Positions 40,798-53,200 of a DNA stretch of 64,000 bases are shown here, piece after piece; position 1 is the stretch's first letter, and each line of letters opens with the position of its first letter. This stretch comes from Escherichia coli (GTDB taxonomy: Bacteria; Pseudomonadota; Gammaproteobacteria; Enterobacterales; Enterobacteriaceae). The notes below the pieces were generated by a model. That model made no database searches and had not been told where the DNA came from. It was given only the letters and a program-made list of their open reading frames with translations. Location: assembly GCF_044324785.1 (NCBI RefSeq), contig NZ_CP172127.1; one strand, given 5' to 3'. The position numbers were made by a program, and so were the translations under genes.

Positions 40798-41176
40798 TGT
40801 TGAACTCCGTGTCAAAAGAAAACGGTCAATCCCATAAACGGCAGATTGAAAACAATGATGTTATATTTTTTGCAAGGCTATTTATGGTGCGGATGTCGTG
40901 TTTTTAATTGTAGGCGAGGTGATTTTTCATTAAAAAATATGCGCTTATGATTATTTTGTAAGAACACATTCATAATATTCATAATGCTCGTGAATAGTCT
41001 TATAAATAATTCAATCGGGATGTTTTTATCTGCGTTACATTAATTTTTCGCAATAGTTAATTATTCCGTTAATTATGGTAATGATGAGGCACAAAGAGAA
41101 AACCCTGCCATTTTCCCCTACTTTCAATCCTGTGATAGGATGTCACTGATGATGTTAATCACACTGACCTTACAGA

Positions 41177-41968
41177 ATGGGCCTTATGAACGCATTTGAT
41201 TCGCAAACCGAAGATTCTTCACCTGCAATTGGTCGCAACTTGCGTAGCCGCCCGCTGGCGCGTAAAAAACTCTCCGAAATGGTGGAAGAAGAGCTGGAAC
41301 AGATGATCCGCCGTCGTGAATTTGGCGAAGGTGAACAATTACCGTCTGAACGCGAACTGATGGCGTTCTTTAACGTCGGGCGTCCTTCGGTGCGTGAAGC
41401 GCTGGCAGCGTTAAAACGTAAAGGTCTGGTGCAAATAAACAACGGCGAACGCGCTCGCGTCTCACGTCCTTCTGCGGACACCATCATCGGCGAGCTTTCC
41501 GGCATGGCGAAAGATTTCCTTTCTCATCCTGGCGGGATTGCCCATTTCGAACAATTACGTCTGTTCTTTGAATCCAGCCTGGTGCGCTATGCGGCTGAAC
41601 ACGCCACCGATGAGCAAATCGATTTGCTGGCAAAAGCACTGGAAATCAACAGTCAGTCGCTTGATAACAACGCGGCATTCATTCGTTCAGACGTTGATTT
41701 CCACCGCGTGCTGGCGGAGATCCCCGGTAACCCAATCTTCATGGCGATCCACGTTGCCCTGCTCGACTGGCTGATCGCCGCACGTCCAACCGTGGCTGAT
41801 CAGGCTCTGCACGAACATAACAACGTTAGCTATCAACAGCATATTGCGATCGTTGACGCGATCCGCCGCCACGATCCCGATGAAGCCGATCGCGCGTTGC
41901 AATCGCATCTCAACAGCGTCTCTGCTACCTGGCACGCCTTCGGTCAGACCACCAACAAAAAGAAATAA
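41177..41968 (+). CDS. nanR: GntR/FadR-family repressor of sialic acid catabolism
   Basis: 263-aa ORF recognised as NanR. Confidence 0.9.
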
Positions 41969-42031
41969 TGCCACTTTAGTGAAGCAGATCGCATTATAAG
42001 CTTTCTGTATGGGGTGTTGCTTAATTGATCT

Positions 42032-42054
42032 GGTATAACAGGTATAAAGGTATA
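42032..42054 (+). promoter_or_regulatory. NanR operator (three GGTATA repeats) in the nanA promoter
   Basis: GGTATAacaGGTATAaaGGTATA read directly, ~40 bp upstream of nanA; matches the described Nan box. Confidence 0.7.
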
Positions 42055-42089
42055 TCGTTTATCAGACAAGCATCACTTCAGAGGTATTT

Positions 42090-42983
42090 ATGGCAACGAA
42101 TTTACGTGGCGTAATGGCCGCACTCCTGACTCCTTTTGACCAACAACAAGCACTGGATAAAGCGAGTCTGCGCCGCCTGGTTCAGTTCAATATTCAGCAG
42201 GGCATCGACGGCTTATACGTGGGTGGTTCGACCGGCGAAGCCTTTGTACAAAGCCTTTCCGAGCGTGAACAGGTACTGGAAATCGTCGCCGAAGAGGCGA
42301 AAGGCAAGATTAAACTTATCGCTCACGTAGGTTGCGTCAGCACTGCTGAAAGCCAACAACTTGCGGCATCGGCTAAACGTTATGGCTTCGATGCCGTCTC
42401 CGCCGTCACGCCGTTCTACTATCCTTTCAGCTTTGAAGAACACTGCGATCACTATCGGGCAATTATTGATTCGGCGGATGGTTTGCCGATGGTGGTGTAC
42501 AACATTCCTGCCCTGAGCGGGGTAAAACTAACCCTGGATCAGATCAACACACTTGTTACGTTGCCTGGCGTCGGTGCGCTGAAACAGACTTCTGGCGATC
42601 TCTATCAGATGGAACAGATCCGTCGTGAACATCCTGATCTGGTGCTCTATAACGGTTACGACGAAATCTTCGCCTCTGGTCTTCTGGCGGGCGCTGATGG
42701 TGGTATCGGTAGCACCTACAACATCATGGGCTGGCGTTATCAGGGGATTGTGAAGGCGCTGAAAGAAGGCGATATCCAGACCGCGCAGAAGCTGCAAACC
42801 GAATGTAATAAAGTCATTGATTTACTGATCAAAACGGGCGTATTCCGCGGCCTGAAAACTGTTCTGCATTATATGGATGTCGTTTCTGTGCCGCTGTGCC
42901 GCAAACCGTTTGGTCCGGTAGATGAAAAATATCTGCCAGAACTGAAGGCGCTGGCCCAGCAGTTGATGCAAGAGCGCGGGTGA
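42090..42983 (+). CDS. nanA: N-acetylneuraminate lyase
   Basis: 297-aa ORF recognised as NanA. Confidence 0.95.
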
Positions 42984-42990
42984 GTTTTTT

Positions 42991-43020
42991 CCCCTCGCTC
43001 GCCCCTACCGGGTGAGGGGA
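42991..43020. repeat. GC-rich imperfect palindrome (CCCCTCGCTC...GGGTGAGGGGA), copy 2
   Basis: Directly after the nanA stop; same arms as the element at 25138-25176. Confidence 0.35.
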
Positions 43021-43091
43021 AATAAACGCATCTGTACCCTACAATTTTCATACCAAAGCGTGTGGGCATCGCCCACCGCGGGAGACTCACA

Positions 43092-44582
43092 ATGAGTACT
43101 ACAACCCAGAATATCCCGTGGTATCGCCATCTCAACCGCGCACAATGGCGGGCATTTTCCGCTGCCTGGTTGGGATATCTGCTTGACGGTTTTGATTTCG
43201 TTTTAATCGCCCTGGTACTTACCGAAGTACAAGGTGAATTCGGGCTGACGACGGTGCAGGCGGCAAGTCTGATCTCCGCAGCCTTTATCTCTCGCTGGTT
43301 CGGCGGCCTGATGCTCGGCGCTATGGGTGACCGCTACGGGCGTCGTCTGGCAATGGTCACCAGCATCGTTCTCTTCTCGGCCGGGACGCTGGCCTGCGGC
43401 TTTGCGCCAGGCTACATCACCATGTTTATCGCTCGTCTGGTCATCGGCATGGGGATGGCGGGTGAATACGGTTCCAGCGCCACCTATGTCATTGAAAGCT
43501 GGCCAAAACATCTGCGTAATAAAGCCAGTGGTTTTCTGATTTCCGGCTTCTCTGTGGGGGCCGTCGTTGCCGCTCAGGTCTATAGCCTGGTGGTTCCGGT
43601 CTGGGGCTGGCGTGCGCTGTTCTTTATCGGCATTTTGCCAATCATCTTTGCTCTCTGGCTGCGTAAAAACATCCCGGAAGCGGAAGACTGGAAAGAGAAA
43701 CACGCAGGTAAAGCACCAGTACGCACAATGGTGGATATTCTCTACCGTGGTGAACATCGCATTGCCAATATCGTAATGACACTGGCGGCGGCTACTGCGC
43801 TGTGGTTTTGCTTTGCCGGTAACCTGCAAAATGCCGCGATCGTCGCTGTTCTTGGGCTGTTATGCGCCGCAATCTTTATCAGCTTTATGGTGCAAAGTAC
43901 GGGCAAACGCTGGCCAACGGGCGTAATGCTGATGGTGGTCGTGTTGTTTGCTTTCCTCTACTCATGGCCGATTCAGGCGCTGCTGCCAACGTATCTGAAA
44001 ACCGATCTGGCTTATAACCCGCATACTGTCGCCAATGTGCTGTTCTTTAGTGGCTTTGGCGCGGCGGTGGGATGCTGCGTAGGTGGTTTCCTCGGTGACT
44101 GGCTGGGAACCCGCAAAGCGTACGTTTGTAGCCTGCTGGCCTCGCAGCTGCTGATTATTCCGGTATTTGCGATTGGCGGCGCAAACGTCTGGGTGCTCGG
44201 TCTGTTACTGTTCTTCCAGCAAATGCTTGGACAAGGGATCGCCGGGATCTTACCGAAACTGATTGGCGGTTATTTCGATACCGACCAGCGTGCAGCTGGC
44301 CTGGGCTTTACCTACAACGTCGGCGCATTGGGCGGTGCACTGGCCCCAATCATCGGCGCGTTGATCGCTCAACGTCTGGATCTGGGTACTGCGCTGGCAT
44401 CGCTCTCGTTCAGTCTGACATTTGTGGTGATCCTGCTGATTGGTCTGGATATGCCTTCCCGCGTTCAGCGTTGGCTGCGCCCGGAAGCATTGCGTACTCA
44501 TGACGCTATCGACGGCAAACCATTTAGCGGTGCCGTGCCATTTGGCCGCGCCAAAAACGATTTAGTCAAAACCAAAAGTTAA
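43092..44582 (+). CDS. nanT: Sialic acid MFS transporter
   Basis: 496-aa protein from [19 protein letters not shown]; GGAG RBS; ORF track has a 10-codon extension. Confidence 0.95.
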
Positions 44583-44629: not shown

Positions 44630-45315
44630 ATGTCGTTACTTGCACAACTGGATCAAAAAATCGCTGCTAACGGTGGCCTGATTGTCTCCTGCCAGCCGGT
44701 TCCGGACAGCCCGCTCGATAAACCCGAAATCGTCGCCGCCATGGCATTAGCGGCAGAACAGGCGGGCGCGGTTGCCATTCGCATTGAAGGTGTGGCAAAT
44801 CTGCAAGCCACGCGTGCGGTGGTGAGCGTGCCAATTATCGGGATTGTGAAACGCGATCTGGAGGATTCTCCGGTACGTATCACGGCCTATATTGAAGATG
44901 TTGATGCGCTGGCGCAGGCGGGCGCGGACATTATCGCCATTGACGGCACCGACCGCCCGCGTCCGGTGCCTGTTGAAACGTTGCTGGCACGTATTCACCA
45001 TCACGGTTTACTGGCGATGACCGACTGCTCAACGCCGGAAGACGGCCTGGCATGCCAAAAGCTGGGAGCCGAAATTATTGGCACTACGCTTTCTGGCTAT
45101 ACCACGCCTGAAACGCCAGAAGAGCCGGATCTGGCGCTGGTGAAAACGTTGAGCGACGCCGGATGTCGGGTGATTGCCGAAGGGCGTTACAACACGCCTG
45201 CTCAGGCGGCAGATGCGATGCGCCACGGCGCGTGGGCGGTGACGGTCGGTTCTGCCATTACGCGTCTTGAACACATTTGTCAGTGGTACAACACAGCGAT
45301 GAAAAAGGCGGTGCT

Positions 45316-45319
<4 letters not shown>
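44630..45319 (+). CDS. nanE: N-acetylmannosamine-6-phosphate 2-epimerase
   Basis: 229-aa protein from [22 protein letters not shown]; ORF track has a 14-codon extension. Confidence 0.95.
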
Positions 45320-46652
<1,333 letters not shown>

Positions 46653-46727
46653 ATTTATTAGCTCAGGTGTGACCTGACCCATCTTTGGCACAGAGCCAAA
46701 CCTGAACTGACGGACCGCTCTGTGCCA

Positions 46728-47069
46728 TTACCTGACGTTGTATTCTTTTATGTTAACACCCTTGATGCTGTATATACCTGTCCGCTTAATTCGCTTACCC
46801 TTTTTATTCGTAATAGTTGCTGTAAGTGTACTGCAGCGAATGGAATGACGTTCATCAATCACCAGCCGAATTGCTTCTGAAGCATCTTCCACCTCTAGAA
46901 GGTCGTGAGTCTTATTTAAGCCGAATGGAACAAGGTGGAAGGCAGTTTTTCCAGATGATTTTCTGGTTATTTTTACTGGATACAACACATCACCACTTTT
47001 ATGGATTAATTCAAGCTGTTCAATGTAAATCATAGCAACTTTCCTTCGTTTATCTGCATGAATATACAA
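46728..47069 (-). CDS. Orphan hypothetical protein in AT-rich DNA (113 aa from TTG; more likely 101 aa from the ATG at 47033)
   Basis: ORF in ~40% GC sequence; internal ATG at 47033 has AGGAAA 6 nt upstream; lysine-rich C-terminus; no family recognised; coding status unproven. Confidence 0.4.
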   Translation of the reverse strand: MYIHADKRRKVAMIYIEQLELIHKSGDVLYPVKITRKSSGKTAFHLVPFGLNKTHDLLEVEDASEAIRLVIDERHSIRCSTLTATITNKKGKRIKRTGIYSIKGVNIKEYNVR

Positions 47070-47120
47070 ACCGAAAATAGGAGATGCAATACAAAAGCTG
47101 TGGAAATATCAAACAGCCTC

Positions 47121-47378
47121 TCAATTTGGCAGGCAGCGTCTGCCAAATCTTTGCCGATGGAAATTCTGCAGACGGTGTCTGCAGAACTTCAACGTGTTGA
47201 TAAAAAGGTAAAAAAGCCTAATTTGGCGTAAGTTTTTTGCAGAGAACCCACGCTTATATCTTAGACTTAAATCCTTTGATAGTCGCTTGATTAGCTGCGC
47301 ACCATACGCAGCCCTAGCCTCGCCACCTTGTTCAAATTCGACAATCCGTCGGCCAATTTCCCAGTACGTCGCGGTCAT
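47121..47378 (-). pseudogene. yhcG: Frameshifted, truncated remnant of yhcG (DUF1016 PD-(D/E)XK nuclease-like)
   Basis: First ~57 codons (MTATYWEIGRRIVEFEQGGEARAAYGAQLIKRLSKDLSLRYKRGFSAKNLRQ) read like the YhcG N-terminus; the frame then degenerates and stops at 85 aa while a plausible continuation (LQTPSAEFPSAKIWQTLPAKL) is in another frame; the ~290 C-terminal codons of the 375-aa K-12 protein are absent. Confidence 0.6.
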
Positions 47379-47487
47379 TAACGCGTTAACACTACGTACC
47401 GTTTCCGTCCGGGCACTATCGAACTGGTGAATAATGTCTCCATGTACCCGCTTGTAGCCTAAATATCGCTACTTTATTTTTAACCAA

Positions 47488-48153
47488 TTAATAATATTTC
47501 AGTGTGATTTCCGCTGTGCCACTGAATTCCATCTTGTCCGTAACATTCAACTCCGACATCGCATTAATCGCAGAGCTGATTTTAAGTGGCACAGTTAGTG
47601 TGGTCAGATTTTGCGGTGAAGATGTACCAAATGCGTAAACGGTTGTGTTATCTGGGCTGACGATCTGCCAATTCCCAGTAGACTTTATCCATGTTGGATT
47701 GCTGCTATCAGTTGCTGAAAGTACAGAAACCCCTGTTCCGTTATCGACGGTAATCCCCATATTATCAATCATAATGGCCCATGCTCCGACCGGCTTATTT
47801 TTGAATAACCCCAGCCCCAGCAGGTCGCTTTGTGTTAATGCGCTACCGAGCGGAATTTTTGCCGCCATTGCAGTACCAGAATTGAGATCTTTAATAAGAA
47901 TCCCTGGGGCAGCGCTGCCTGGACAGCTAATTGATAGTTGGGTATTTTGATCTGGTAAGCGTGTGGCATCCTGGGTATTCATATTTGCAACAATATAGGT
48001 TCCAAGATTAATGACGCTATTCGTCAGGTTAATTGAACAGGAAGGCGGTTCCACCAACGCGCTAACATGGATGGTGATGTCTGCGGCACTGACATTGGTG
48101 GAACAGAAAAGCGTTATCAGGCCAATCAGCGATATTTTATTCATGACTATCAC
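47488..48153 (-). CDS. yhcF: Fimbrial-like protein (DUF1120)
   Basis: 221-aa ORF, GTG start overlapping the yhcE stop, signal peptide, C-terminus FSGTAEITLKYY. Confidence 0.75.
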   Translation of the reverse strand: MIVMNKISLIGLITLFCSTNVSAADITIHVSALVEPPSCSINLTNSVINLGTYIVANMNTQDATRLPDQNTQLSISCPGSAAPGILIKDLNSGTAMAAKIPLGSALTQSDLLGLGLFKNKPVGAWAIMIDNMGITVDNGTGVSVLSATDSSNPTWIKSTGNWQIVSPDNTTVYAFGTSSPQNLTTLTVPLKISSAINAMSELNVTDKMEFSGTAEITLKYY

Positions 48154-48722
48154 TCCGGTCGGCTATTCAGAGAAATGTTCAGGTCGTTGGTGAGCGTAAG
48201 TAAGTCTTGAGGGTTAATATCCTTGCCTGTGATCAATGGCAGTATCGCCAGTTGTACACTGGCCTGTGTTAGCGCCTGTTCGCGATCATGCTGCATAAAA
48301 GATATACCTTCCGAAGGTAATAAAACAATATTAGATGTACCGCCGTCTTGAAGTTGGTTGCTCACGGAAACACGAGACACAGAGGCACTCTGACCGCCTA
48401 TTGTCGGATTAGAGGCTTTGACTCGTATCACGCTCTGCTCGCCAAACTTAAATAGTGATTTTCCTTTATATGTCAATTTATTACCGTCAATCATGACGTG
48501 TACATAATGTGGTGAATCGCATTGAATATTCAGCGTAATATAGCGTTCTGGCAACGCAATACCATCCACCACCGTGGTATTGATGGTGTGTAATGTGCGT
48601 GAAGAACGATCAACCTTTCCCCAGGCAATATCCTGTTGGTTGGCTGTCACCTTACAGTTCTCGGCCAACGTAAATTGACTAAAAAAACAGGTTATTAGCA
48701 GAAGAGCCAAAGATGTTTTCAT
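48150..48722 (-). CDS. yhcE: Fimbrial-like protein, intact
   Basis: 190-aa uninterrupted ORF with signal peptide MKTSLALLLITCFFSQFTLA; no IS sequence present. Confidence 0.75.
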   Translation of the reverse strand: MKTSLALLLITCFFSQFTLAENCKVTANQQDIAWGKVDRSSRTLHTINTTVVDGIALPERYITLNIQCDSPHYVHVMIDGNKLTYKGKSLFKFGEQSVIRVKASNPTIGGQSASVSRVSVSNQLQDGGTSNIVLLPSEGISFMQHDREQALTQASVQLAILPLITGKDINPQDLLTLTNDLNISLNSRPE

Positions 48723-48734
48723 CTTGTTATTTCC

Positions 48735-51176
48735 TTATAAACAATGAGCTTGAACCGTTTCGTATACCACACTATCAGGCGCATCTTTGGGTAACGTATA
48801 TTGTAGATGGCATATTTTGCCATCAGGAAGAATAACCTTAAGAGTGTCCGTATTATTTTCAATGTTATTAATAAAGAAGGTGCCTTCTTCAACAACGGAG
48901 GTCAGATAGTTTCCCTGTGCGGTATGAACAGAACTATTCAGAGGTAAAAGGGCATTATTGAATCGCACATCCTGGAACATCACCCGACGTGCTGATAGCA
49001 CGGTGAAGGAAATACTTCCGACTGAATAACGCCCTTGTTTAACTTCTTGAGTAGCGTTTGCAATATCGGTTTTTTTAGCCAATGATTTGGGGTCAATTTC
49101 AACAATTGCCGTCTGGTACGGAGGTAAAACGGGCACAACAGCTTGCCCCCACCAGTCAGTCCATGCGGCACCCTGTGGCGTTTGAATTTGGACGCCAGCC
49201 TGTTTTTGGCTCAATTGGGCAATGGCCCAGGTATCAGCGATCCTGTCCGGGGAAAAGGTTATTCCATCCTTGTGCAGAGCGATCCCGCCATCAAGCGTGG
49301 CAGAAGAATAATGGCTGTCCGAGCCGCTTTGTCCCGCAGATAGTCCGAGGCGAGTATAATGTAGGTTAGTATTAAGGCCACCGCTGGCATTATTGCCACT
49401 ATCTTGGCTACGTTCATAGCTGACATAATAACTACTGTCTTTCAGGAAGGCGCCAGAAAGCGTTGAGCCAATGCGAGTATCATTATTTTCATGTCGCACC
49501 CAACTACTGGAATAATGGTTACCTAAAGGCACGTAAACAGTAAGGTTAAGTGAGTCTTCACTGTCATTTCCTTTTTCATGCCGGTAATAAAAATTGGTGG
49601 AGAAATATTTAAACTGCCTACTCCAGTTTATTGTGGTGTTAGTTGAATCACCGTCACGATAATAGCTTTTATTATTGGTATAACTTAGGCTAATTCCACC
49701 TAATAAATCGTGATACCAGGTCAGCGATCCAGTAAGCTCATTTTTATTGTAGGCATAGAATTTATTGTCATCTCCATAATCCCATGGTTGGTCGCTGATA
49801 TCGTCATTTTGCGTGGAATCAAGCAAATCGCGATAACCTCGCTCACTCCAGGTGTCGGTAACGGAAAAGCTTAAATTATCCAGCAGGTCTGCACCTAACG
49901 TGATCGCTGCCTGATTCCCTCGCTTATTATGATTATCATCGACCGCACTTCGGAGCTGAATAGAAGTTGACCAGTGAGTGAAAGGCTGAAAATCAACCCC
50001 GCCAGCAAAAGCATAATAGTTATTTGCGACGATGCCGCCTGTCGATAAAGTATAAGTATTAAAAACCGGCTGACTCCAGGCACCGCTTAACACCATCGGT
50101 TCGTCATCTTCTGCACCAACCTCGCGAACCCGGCCTACGGCAAAATTGTAGTTTGGTGTTCCTGTCACCGTTCGACGGAAAGAATCGCTAAAAACAGTAA
50201 ACTGGTCGCTACTCCCATCGCTTTCGATAACTGTCACATCCAGGTTACTGCTTTGATTCAGGACTGGAACGTTGGTTAAAGTAAATGGTCCCATTGGAGC
50301 CAAAGTAGAATAAATAAGCTGTTTATTTTGTCGGATTTCAATGCGTGCTTGCGATGATTTGACATTACCAGAAACCATCACATCATTACGTCTGTTTGGG
50401 GTTAGCGAAATATCAGGTTGTATCTGTACACCGTAAAGTGAGGCGCCGGAAAGTAGGGGGTTGGCAAGGTTGATCCCGCCTGCCTGCATATTTATTTTGC
50501 TTGCGGTGAAAGTATGTTCGGCATAAGTATAGAGATTGTCGAGATTGTGATCGCCATTAGATAAGGCAACCGAGGTACTATTACGTATTATCCAGTCGCC
50601 CATATTGATGCCGCTTTGTAGCGCAGCACTGGTATAATTATCATTATCGCCGTTATATTTATTAATATTATGCAATAATGAATAGTTTATAGTCGCCCCC
50701 GTCCCTCCAGTGGTGTAACCGCTAACCTCATCTGGGGATTGTAAGGCAATCGCCTCTGTCGGTAATAACACAAAGACTTTGTATTGCGCCGAATCGAAAT
50801 GTACCACCGCTGATGGATAGAGCATCTGCAATGTTTGGCAACGGTCGTCAGTTTCCGTTAAATTTTGTGGGATGATGACACCAGCTCTTTGCATCCAGTT
50901 AGTGTCAGCGCAAAGTTCGCCTTGTGGGTCAATAGTGATGGTAACATTGACATTTCGGTGACCATTAATGTCCATATTGACCTGTTGCGTGCCGGGAGGA
51001 AGACGTGCTTCTTTTGAAAAATAAGCCGCAACATTTTTATCTATACCAAATGAGCGTAACGCATCGCTATTGAAGTTAAGAGCGGTCTCCATCTCTTCCT
51101 GCGACGAAGCTGCCATAGCTATAATAGGAATAAAATGCAGCACTAGAAAGATCTTGTTGAGGGGAAAATATTTCAA
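48735..51176 (-). CDS. yhcD: Fimbrial outer-membrane usher
   Basis: 813-aa ORF with usher-type beta-barrel pattern and conserved C-terminal Cys pair; start may be at an internal Met. Confidence 0.9.
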   Translation of the reverse strand: MKYFPLNKIFLVLHFIPIIAMAASSQEEMETALNFNSDALRSFGIDKNVAAYFSKEARLPPGTQQVNMDINGHRNVNVTITIDPQGELCADTNWMQRAGVIIPQNLTETDDRCQTLQMLYPSAVVHFDSAQYKVFVLLPTEAIALQSPDEVSGYTTGGTGATINYSLLHNINKYNGDNDNYTSAALQSGINMGDWIIRNSTSVALSNGDHNLDNLYTYAEHTFTASKINMQAGGINLANPLLSGASLYGVQIQPDISLTPNRRNDVMVSGNVKSSQARIEIRQNKQLIYSTLAPMGPFTLTNVPVLNQSSNLDVTVIESDGSSDQFTVFSDSFRRTVTGTPNYNFAVGRVREVGAEDDEPMVLSGAWSQPVFNTYTLSTGGIVANNYYAFAGGVDFQPFTHWSTSIQLRSAVDDNHNKRGNQAAITLGADLLDNLSFSVTDTWSERGYRDLLDSTQNDDISDQPWDYGDDNKFYAYNKNELTGSLTWYHDLLGGISLSYTNNKSYYRDGDSTNTTINWSRQFKYFSTNFYYRHEKGNDSEDSLNLTVYVPLGNHYSSSWVRHENNDTRIGSTLSGAFLKDSSYYVSYERSQDSGNNASGGLNTNLHYTRLGLSAGQSGSDSHYSSATLDGGIALHKDGITFSPDRIADTWAIAQLSQKQAGVQIQTPQGAAWTDWWGQAVVPVLPPYQTAIVEIDPKSLAKKTDIANATQEVKQGRYSVGSISFTVLSARRVMFQDVRFNNALLPLNSSVHTAQGNYLTSVVEEGTFFINNIENNTDTLKVILPDGKICHLQYTLPKDAPDSVVYETVQAHCL

Positions 51177-51187
51177 GATAGCATTCC

Positions 51188-51889
51188 TTAATGATCAACA
51201 GGTAGATTTACACTGTTCACTTTTATTCCATAACGAGATAAAGGCTGTAGGATGACTTGATTAATTGGCAGCGAACTGGATAAAGTAGCCGTTAACGTTT
51301 CACCAGGTAAAATAAAGGTACGCAGCAGGTCTACCATTTTATTATTTTCAGGTATGATGATTTCAGGAGATAGACGAATCACGTAAGCGCCGGTATTTAC
51401 AACCTGTAAATTCGTACCTTGTTGTTTAAATTTTAAATCGCCCCATGGTTCTTTGTTTTTTTTAATGTTTTTTGGCGTGATGATGACAGGGATATCCTGT
51501 GTGTAAATAACATTCAGCTTAATGTTATCAGTTTTTTTTTCATCAGCATTTTTTGATGGAATACCACTAAATTGGGCTCGCATCATATGTTCTACCATAA
51601 GTGGTTTAGTCGTTTGTAATATGAAACGAACTTGTTGCCTTTTTCCCGATTCGACGCGTACGACAGGTTGGGTTGGTATTAGTTTAATACCACTGTTTTT
51701 TTCTTCATCAATCAGGCTGGTTCTGACATATAGCAATGCCGCATCGCTGCCAGTATTAGTCACATTAATACTGGCTTCGCCATCTTCCTCGTAGACTTCC
51801 AGTACTGGCGTTTCGGGCTGCATACCAGCGGTCCAACCATGGGAGGAGAAAAGACAGTAGCCGAAGAATAAATAACGTAAATATTTCAT
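51188..51889 (-). CDS. yhcA: Periplasmic fimbrial chaperone (PapD-like)
   Basis: 233-aa ORF with signal peptide and chaperone pattern. Confidence 0.9.
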   Translation of the reverse strand: MKYLRYLFFGYCLFSSHGWTAGMQPETPVLEVYEEDGEASINVTNTGSDAALLYVRTSLIDEEKNSGIKLIPTQPVVRVESGKRQQVRFILQTTKPLMVEHMMRAQFSGIPSKNADEKKTDNIKLNVIYTQDIPVIITPKNIKKNKEPWGDLKFKQQGTNLQVVNTGAYVIRLSPEIIIPENNKMVDLLRTFILPGETLTATLSSSLPINQVILQPLSRYGIKVNSVNLPVDH

Positions 51890-52007
51890 AAATTATAAAC
51901 GCATAATATAAAAAGAACGATACGCCCACAGAATGTGTAGGCGTTGTTTTATTAAATTATTCATGTATGTTATTTTTCAGTTAAAACTAAAAAATAACAG
52001 CAATAAA

Positions 52008-52754
52008 TTATTTATATTCCAGGAAGACTTCAAAGCCACCTGTATACTCTTCACGCCCGGTCACATCAGCGAAAGAGGCTTTATCCAGCAGCGCGACCGT
52101 TGTTTGTAGCGGGAAAACAACTGTTTTAGCTGGCGTGATGGAAGTCTTTCCTGGTTCTGCAACAGAAATACGACGAGTATTGGTTAAAGATACTGCACCA
52201 GCTGAATCTTTAGGCACGATGGTCCATGGCTGGTCAAGGTCGGTGCTATAGCTATAGATCAGCACTTTTTCAACTGGGGTAGGGTTTGCAACAGTGGTGA
52301 TTGTCGGGGTTCTGAATACAGTCCAGAATGCTCCAGCACCTTTGCCGCCAGCACGCAGTAGTGGGTTGATCTGATTTTTTGAAGAGCCGAGAGTTAAATC
52401 AACTGTGCGACCATCTGCAGTGTTAATGATGGTAGGATTGCCGTTAGAAAGCGTTTTTACTTTGCTTTCATCAGCGGCATTGAGATGATTAGTTCTTAGT
52501 GCAACATACATATCGGTCGGACAATCAACTTTAAGCTGACTTTCTTTGATCATCGGTAGGTTATTCGATGCATCGGTAAGTTGATCAACAGCCTGAGTAC
52601 CAAAATCCAGAGTGTTACCCTCAATAATACCCAGTGAACATCCCGAAGGGACTAAAAGACCTTTCACGGTAATGGTTGCATCCGCAGCCAGAGCTGAACC
52701 GGTGGTAATAGCCAGAATCGCTACGCTGAGCGTAAGCTTTTTAACTAATGACAT
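52008..52754 (-). CDS. gltF: Periplasmic DUF1120 protein GltF
   Basis: ORF track 52008-52790; signal peptide MSLVKKLTLSVAILAITTGSALA favours the start at 52754; C-terminus GGFEVFLEYK resembles yhcF. Confidence 0.7.
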   Translation of the reverse strand: MSLVKKLTLSVAILAITTGSALAADATITVKGLLVPSGCSLGIIEGNTLDFGTQAVDQLTDASNNLPMIKESQLKVDCPTDMYVALRTNHLNAADESKVKTLSNGNPTIINTADGRTVDLTLGSSKNQINPLLRAGGKGAGAFWTVFRTPTITTVANPTPVEKVLIYSYSTDLDQPWTIVPKDSAGAVSLTNTRRISVAEPGKTSITPAKTVVFPLQTTVALLDKASFADVTGREEYTGGFEVFLEYK

Positions 52755-53200
52755 GTTGTTAAATTCCATGTTAAGTAAATGTTGTATCAAGACGTGAAAA
52801 CATTGTTTTTAATAAAGCTTTGAGAGTATACAAAATATTTCTTTAAATAAATTTTAAAATATATATGTTTTATTTTTTACATAATTTATGTGAATTGTTT
52901 TTTTGTTATTTTGGGATCGGGTGTCACTTTTTAGGTGTTATTTATTCGATTTATGAATATTTACTTTAAAAAATCAGAATATATAAAGACAGTTTTTTCG
53001 GGGATTGGCTCGTATTGTAAGAGCTGAAATTGTTTACTCTGTGGATTCGAGGAAGAAAGGTACTAAGACAATTATTTGTCTTGGTTTGCCCATCTATAAT
53101 TGAAAATGCGTTACGAGTTGTGGAAGATGAAGATAGATGAGGTGAGGATCCAGCTCCCTGTCATCTGTTATGCTGTCAGGGAACCGGAAAGTGCTAGGGC

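Follow-up and report, generated by a model that had tools for sequence, protein, structure and literature searches.

Why does the short gap between nanR and nanA hold three direct copies of the hexamer GGTATA, and do they still serve as a repressor site in the chromosome studied here? In the published E. coli system, NanR acts at an operator made up of three GGTATA repeats set 2-3 nt apart, and nanA is induced up to 1000-fold (PMC3658417). Three NanR dimers bind (GGTATA)3 cooperatively with a Kd of 20-39 nM and a Hill coefficient of ~2; a single repeat is bound poorly, affinity needs no more than two, and binding is attenuated when the spacers are made six nucleotides longer (PMC8012715). Short, defined spacers of 2-3 nt are required of a NanR operator (PMC3658417, PMC8012715). 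Neu5Ac, together with Zn, binds the C-terminal domain of NanR and attenuates its binding to DNA (PMC8012715). Moreover, the nan operon is under positive control by CRP (PMC12562284). In the window, by which we mean the whole 64-kb stretch of DNA that was analysed, the site is almost certainly the nanA promoter-operator of the E. coli chromosome, with a canonical NanR operator that represses the operon and makes it inducible by Neu5Ac; nothing observed speaks against this reading.

The triple GGTATA array

The stop codon of nanR (41966-41968) and the ATG of nanA (42090) bound a gap of 121 bp (41969-42089), and all three repeats lie inside it. Exact copies of GGTATA occur on the + strand at 42032-42037, 42041-42046 and 42049-42054, separated by ACA (3 nt) and then by AA (2 nt), as in K-12. 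The sequence TTGATCT precedes the three repeats and their spacers, TCGTT follows them, and the third repeat ends 36 bp 5' of the nanA ATG. Tandem Repeats Finder also called the array at 42032-42054.

The operator class of the E. coli sialoregulon is defined by at least two, canonically three, direct copies of GGTATA set 2-3 nt apart at the promoter of an operon for sialic-acid use, together with a gene encoding NanR. The window has three exact copies at these spacings, upstream of nanA followed by nanT, nanE, nanK and nanQ, with nanR at 41177-41968. The + strand element at 42032-42054 is identical to the operators of K-12 nanA and K-12 nanX; this operator is described in PMC8012715 and PMC3658417.

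GGTATA is found 28 times on both strands of the window, against 15.9 expected from shuffles, and the nanR-nanA gap is the sole cluster of two or three tandem copies. The Poisson expectation for three copies within 30 nt is ~2.7e-4 per window, and a triple arose in 2 of 2000 mononucleotide shuffles of the window. The array is real and not due to chance.

Identity to the K-12 operator

Are the repeats displaced or mutated relative to functional operators? They are neither, by alignment to the K-12 nanA promoter, the check that the preliminary description of this DNA had proposed: 171 bases around the site, the whole 121-bp intergenic region included, are 100% identical to K-12 MG1655 (NC_000913), without displacement. 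The same description had held that three GGTATA hexamers at 42032-42054 fit the described NanR operator; the coordinates were exact, and the 23 bp that they span, GGTATAACAGGTATAAAGGTATA, are those of K-12 and of the published (GGTATA)3 operator. The K-12 operator is the one treated by Kalivoda et al. (2003, 2013) and Horne et al. (2021).

The gap matches the K-12 nanA (nanATEK-yhcH) promoter-operator base for base, in operator, CRP-like site and Shine-Dalgarno sequence alike, and the K-12 nan locus has the same gene order with nanR directly upstream. In contrast to this control region, which is without differences, the surrounding genes are 1.3-5% apart in DNA and NanR carries the substitution T207A. 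The flanking coding DNA is 3-4% different from K-12, with 26 differences in the adjacent 600 bp. At this local flanking rate, the probability of finding zero differences in 121 bp is ~0.005, which points to purifying selection on the nanR-nanA control region. Judged by its sequence and locus, the site is the known NanR operator itself, beyond mere similarity. The operator, its regulator, stoichiometry and inducer are already known from genetics, biochemistry and structural work on the identical sequence.

How does such an operator compare with others recognised by GntR regulators? NanR and FadR-type regulators have the winged-helix GntR domain in common. FadR-type operators are palindromic (TnGTnnnACnA) and take one dimer per site, whereas in the NanR operator a direct repeat occurs three times with a periodicity of 8-9 bp, and up to three dimers bind cooperatively by way of the N-terminal extension (PMC8012715). 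The binding mode of NanR is analogous to that of FadR on DNA according to Horne et al. (PMC8012715), and the first repeat with its flanks, TGGTATAACA, reads as partly palindromic, as in FadR-type sites.

Predicted promoter geometry

Where would transcription of nanA begin, and what would the operator cover? Two promoter models on the + strand score equally by hexamer scoring. Model 1 uses a candidate extended -10, TGgTATAAC (42031-42039), and predicts +1 near 42046-42047; the operator would then run from roughly -15 to +8. Model 2 uses an alternative -10, TATAAA (42043-42048), paired with TTAATT (42021-42026) at 16-nt spacing, and predicts +1 near 42055, so that the operator would span roughly -23 to -1. 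In either model the -10 region lies under the operator, an arrangement that fits repression by blocking RNA polymerase. The transcription start was reportedly found by S1 mapping by Kalivoda et al. in 2003, and NanR is said to protect ~30 bp covering the promoter. In a strict sigma-70 scan of 41000-43200, the + strand of the gap gave no promoter-like hit, as would be expected if the promoter is weak and depends on an activator.

A CRP-like site, AGTGA-N6-TCGCA, can be read at 41978-41993 (centre 41985.5); it matches the core at 8 of 10 positions, and two Enterobacter species retain each of the half-sites. Its predicted position is -60.5/-61.5 in model 1 and near -69.5 in model 2. Class I CRP-dependent promoters have their site centred near -61.5, -71.5, -82.5 or -92.5 from the mapped start. 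We infer that the positive control by CRP is exerted from 41978-41993; this role, like the exact position of the -10 and +1 elements, is predicted from the models and the reading of the site.

Between nanR and nanA no intrinsic terminator was predicted. An Rfam scan of 40800-43200 at E<=1 gave no match, and thus no sign of a structured RNA in the leader. On the + strand, a Shine-Dalgarno sequence, GAGG (42081-42084), was read 5 nt before the nanA ATG, and GAGGTAT is conserved in Enterobacter. A fourth, near-repeat of the hexamer, GGTATT, lies over this region at 42083-42088, 29 bp past the third repeat; its Enterobacter counterpart is GGTATC, and it is probably just the ribosome-binding site.

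NanR and the nan operon

Is the repressor that would act on this operator intact? On the + strand, nanR (41177-41968) encodes a NanR of 263 aa that scores 408.9 bits against NCBIfam NF003011 (cut-off 260) and is identical to RefSeq WP_000523844.1. It is one substitution, T207A, away from the K-12 protein, with residues 1-206 identical, and matches the structures PDB 6ON4/6WFQ/6WG7 over its full length. All DNA-, Zn- and Neu5Ac-contacting residues named by Horne et al. (PMC8012715) are unchanged. The residues kept are Ser33, Glu58, Gly68, Ser71, Arg73, Glu91, Arg128, Asn165, Phe168, Asp172, His176, Ile200, Arg203, His214, Asn215, Ser218, Gln221, His222, His244 and Leu245; residue 207 lies outside the named functional and contact residues.

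The genes downstream, all on the + strand, are nanA (42090-42983; N-acetylneuraminate lyase, 297 aa; TIGR00683, 571.5 bits), nanT (43092-44582; sialic acid:H+ symporter, 496 aa; NF003024, 947.8 bits), nanE (44630-45319; ManNAc-6-P 2-epimerase, 229 aa; NF002231), nanK (45316-46191; ManNAc kinase, 291 aa; NF047821) and nanQ, or yhcH (46188-46652; N-acetylneuraminate anomerase, 154 aa; NF040884). Each nan product is above its curated NCBIfam cut-off. NanA and NanE show 0 amino acid differences from K-12, NanT shows 2, NanQ 6, and NanK 12 with no stops. All six genes are full length, and dcuD, sspB and sspA lie further upstream of nanR.

The 5,476 bp from nanR to nanQ align collinearly with K-12 and hold neither indels nor internal stops; the 155 substitutions all lie outside the nanR-nanA gap. 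The preliminary description had called the operon intact, and this collinearity, together with the scores of all its products, bears it out. It had further called the operon repressor-controlled here. The operator does match the K-12 system in which control was tested, and NanR is one substitution off; control in this strain would follow from the likeness of the sequences. The use that it made of the nanA control region as an internal check on annotation also stands: the locus is normal, so the annotation of the stretch can be trusted. The result is chiefly of value as such a quality check: the nan locus is a normal one for E. coli, and its control region is unaltered. The operator finding itself adds no new biology and is correct but ordinary.

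How far the operon diverges from K-12 varies from gene to gene. The difference reaches 5.0% in nanK and 3.9% in nanQ, against 1.3% in nanE and 1.8% in nanT, with nanR at 3.2% and nanA at 3.4%. This unevenness suggests a recombination mosaic.

Conservation and sister operators

How widely is the array kept? A 261-bp query around the site found a match in 5,409 of 5,426 complete E. coli genomes, always with nanR/nanA annotated, and the region is absent altogether in the other 17; the window is accordingly a segment of an E. coli chromosome. The 36-bp stretch over the repeats (42026-42061) matched in 5,384 of the 5,426, of which 5,357 matched at >=99% identity; ~25 genomes besides the 17 are without it. 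The core genes of the window are ~99% identical to those of the best complete E. coli genomes.

In E. coli EC96 (NZ_CP060748.1:604473-604549), the 261-bp query finds a match over no more than its 77 bp nearest nanA, and nanR and the promoter-operator portion appear to be missing or interrupted.

Among the matches listed in a pattern scan with one genome per species, the arrangement nanR-repeat-nanA was found in two Enterobacter species, whose NanR and NanA are ~83% and ~90% identical to the proteins of the window. Alignment of E. coli with these two species gives an invariant block of 31 bp, TCTGGTATAACAGGTATAAAGGTATATCGTT (42029-42059), the longest invariant run in the intergenic region. Shorter conserved runs in the three-way alignment are AGTGA...TCGCA (41978-41993), a TGCTTA motif and the Shine-Dalgarno/ATG. 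The size of the invariant block matches the ~30-bp NanR footprint reported by Kalivoda et al. in 2003.

In the published sialoregulon, nanA is one of three operons with nanX and nanC (PMC8012715; PMC3658417). The K-12 promoters of the latter two (L003:8595-8647 and L003:44921-44973) both belong to loci outside the window. The identical 23-mer lies upstream of K-12 nanX (yjhB), whose promoter has TTGATCTGGTATAACAGGTATAAAGGTATA exactly. The nanC promoter shares TTGATCTGGTATAACAGGTATAAAGGTATA up to the third repeat, which there reads GGTGCA (two changes). At both promoters the flanks and the downstream genes differ from those of the nanA locus. Both have TTGATCT directly upstream of the repeats and a CRP-like TGTGA-N6 at the same distance from them as in nanA, within 1 bp. 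The CRP-like site, TTGATCT and the repeats thus stand at fixed spacing (within 1 bp) in all three control regions, a pattern that suggests duplication of the entire promoter-operator module among nanA, nanX and nanC, with degeneration of the third nanC repeat to GGTGCA.

Alternative explanations and proposed mechanism

Could the hexamers be something other than an operator? Every repeat contains a -10-like TATA(A/T)N hexamer (TATAAC, TATAAA, TATATC), both of the best promoter models place the -10 within the repeats, and the array might be taken for a set of overlapping -10-like elements whose GGTATA periodicity has no repressor function here. We consider this very unlikely. Neither the GG of any repeat nor the spacers vary across E. 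coli and Enterobacter, a constancy that a -10 alone would not need, and nanX, which is co-regulated, has the same 23-mer at its promoter; direct binding of NanR to the operator sequence is, moreover, published (PMC8012715). The -10 and operator roles overlap and are not mutually exclusive. A product of chance or slippage, a short tandem repeat without function, is less probable still, to the point of being negligible. Unrelated period-8 GGTATANN arrays are indeed numerous among the matches listed in a scan of 100,044 species genomes, for example in Bacteroidota, Pseudoalteromonas and Shewanella, which means that such arrays arise for other reasons too. However, chance would supply ~3e-4 triples per window, and this one is placed precisely between the NanR gene and nanA. 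It varies in neither copy number nor sequence across the 5,357 E. coli genomes matching at >=99% identity and is conserved into Enterobacter. Conservation and published binding refute an origin by chance or slippage in practice.

The operator might instead be intact in an operon whose regulation has been lost or altered, through NanR A207 or a factor outside the window, leaving transcription constitutive or uninducible. The T207A substitution does fall in the effector-binding domain of NanR; yet residue 207 is not a listed Neu5Ac, Zn or DNA contact, all listed contacts are unchanged, and at least two further complete E. coli genomes, those of CFSAN018748 and S10, are annotated with the A207 allele (WP_000523844.1). 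To such a loss of control we would give only a very slim chance.

If the site is the canonical, Neu5Ac-responsive NanR operator, how would it work? When sialic acid is absent, up to three NanR dimers would load cooperatively onto the three GGTATA repeats by means of the N-terminal extension. The ~30 bp that they occupy would overlap the -10 region and start site of the nanATEK-nanQ promoter, and RNA polymerase would not initiate. Binding of N-acetylneuraminate with Zn at the C-terminal domain of NanR would weaken its hold on the DNA and induce the operon. Activation, needed by the weak -35 region, would be supplied by cAMP-CRP ~46 bp upstream of the first repeat. The binding stoichiometry, the cooperativity and the effect of Neu5Ac in this scheme are carried over from the literature on K-12; what was observed on the DNA described here is the sequence itself, that it is identical to K-12 and conserved, and that repressor and operon are intact.

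GGTATA repeats in distant genomes

Is this type of operator confined to the enterobacteria? Our scan of species genomes for the triple repeat gave at least 120 loci, mostly unrelated arrays of period 8/9, which serve as examples and not as a census; E. coli, Salmonella and Shigella are not among the matches listed. A NanR/FadR-like GntR+FCD regulator lies within 1.5 kb of the triple repeat at 7 of 120 loci among the matches listed. Five of the seven are outside Enterobacteriaceae: one in Sphingomonadales, one in Synergistales, two in Hungatella and one in Enterocloster, the last two being genera of Lachnospiraceae. Distant GGTATA triples with 2-3 nt spacers directly adjoin GntR+FCD genes at L067:1040-1062, L026:8520-8541, L051:6003-6024, L059:6788-6809 and L010:3602-3623. 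The adjoining regulator is 53% identical to NanR in Sphingomonadales and 35% in Synergistales, and genes for DHDPS-family proteins, TRAP DctP (TRAP-transporter) and Zn-dehydrogenase lie near some of the distant loci. These occurrences suggest that the direct-repeat type of operator is wider than enterobacterial NanR. It is possible, and we propose it only tentatively, that the cooperative direct-repeat operator is an old, widespread trait of one branch of the FadR subfamily, found at times beside genes outside the classical nan set.

Pseudoalteromonas, Shewanella and several Bacteroidota MAGs contain long GGTATANN(N) tandem arrays of period 8/9 with at least 10 copies (L004:9135-9212, L013:431-481 and many Bacteroidota loci). 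No NanR homologue was detected near them, and they seem unrelated to the NanR operator.

The neighbouring locus

Between nanQ and gltD (46653-53200), a chaperone-usher cluster stands where K-12 has gltF-yhcA-yhcD-yhcE-yhcF-yhcG. Its ORFs (47488-48153, 48150-48722, 48735-51176, 51188-51889 and 52008-52790), all on the - strand, have the same architecture as the K-12 locus, and the chaperone-usher proteins are 22-39% identical to their K-12 counterparts. Megablast against 5,426 complete E. coli genomes left the ~5.7-kb interior (about 47436-53200) without a match, and for the usher gene even a search of this set in distant mode came back empty. NCBI lists the usher protein for E. coli, in a small protein cluster with 20 members; the next relative of the usher is 51% identical. 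The chaperone-usher cluster has the look of a rare case in which the yhc fimbrial locus underwent xenologous replacement. Beside a small transposase-like ORF (46728-47069), yhcG (DUF1016/PDDEXK) is a fragment within 46728-47435; the same annotation is found in strain S10 and many other E. coli, whereas yhcG of K-12 is intact.
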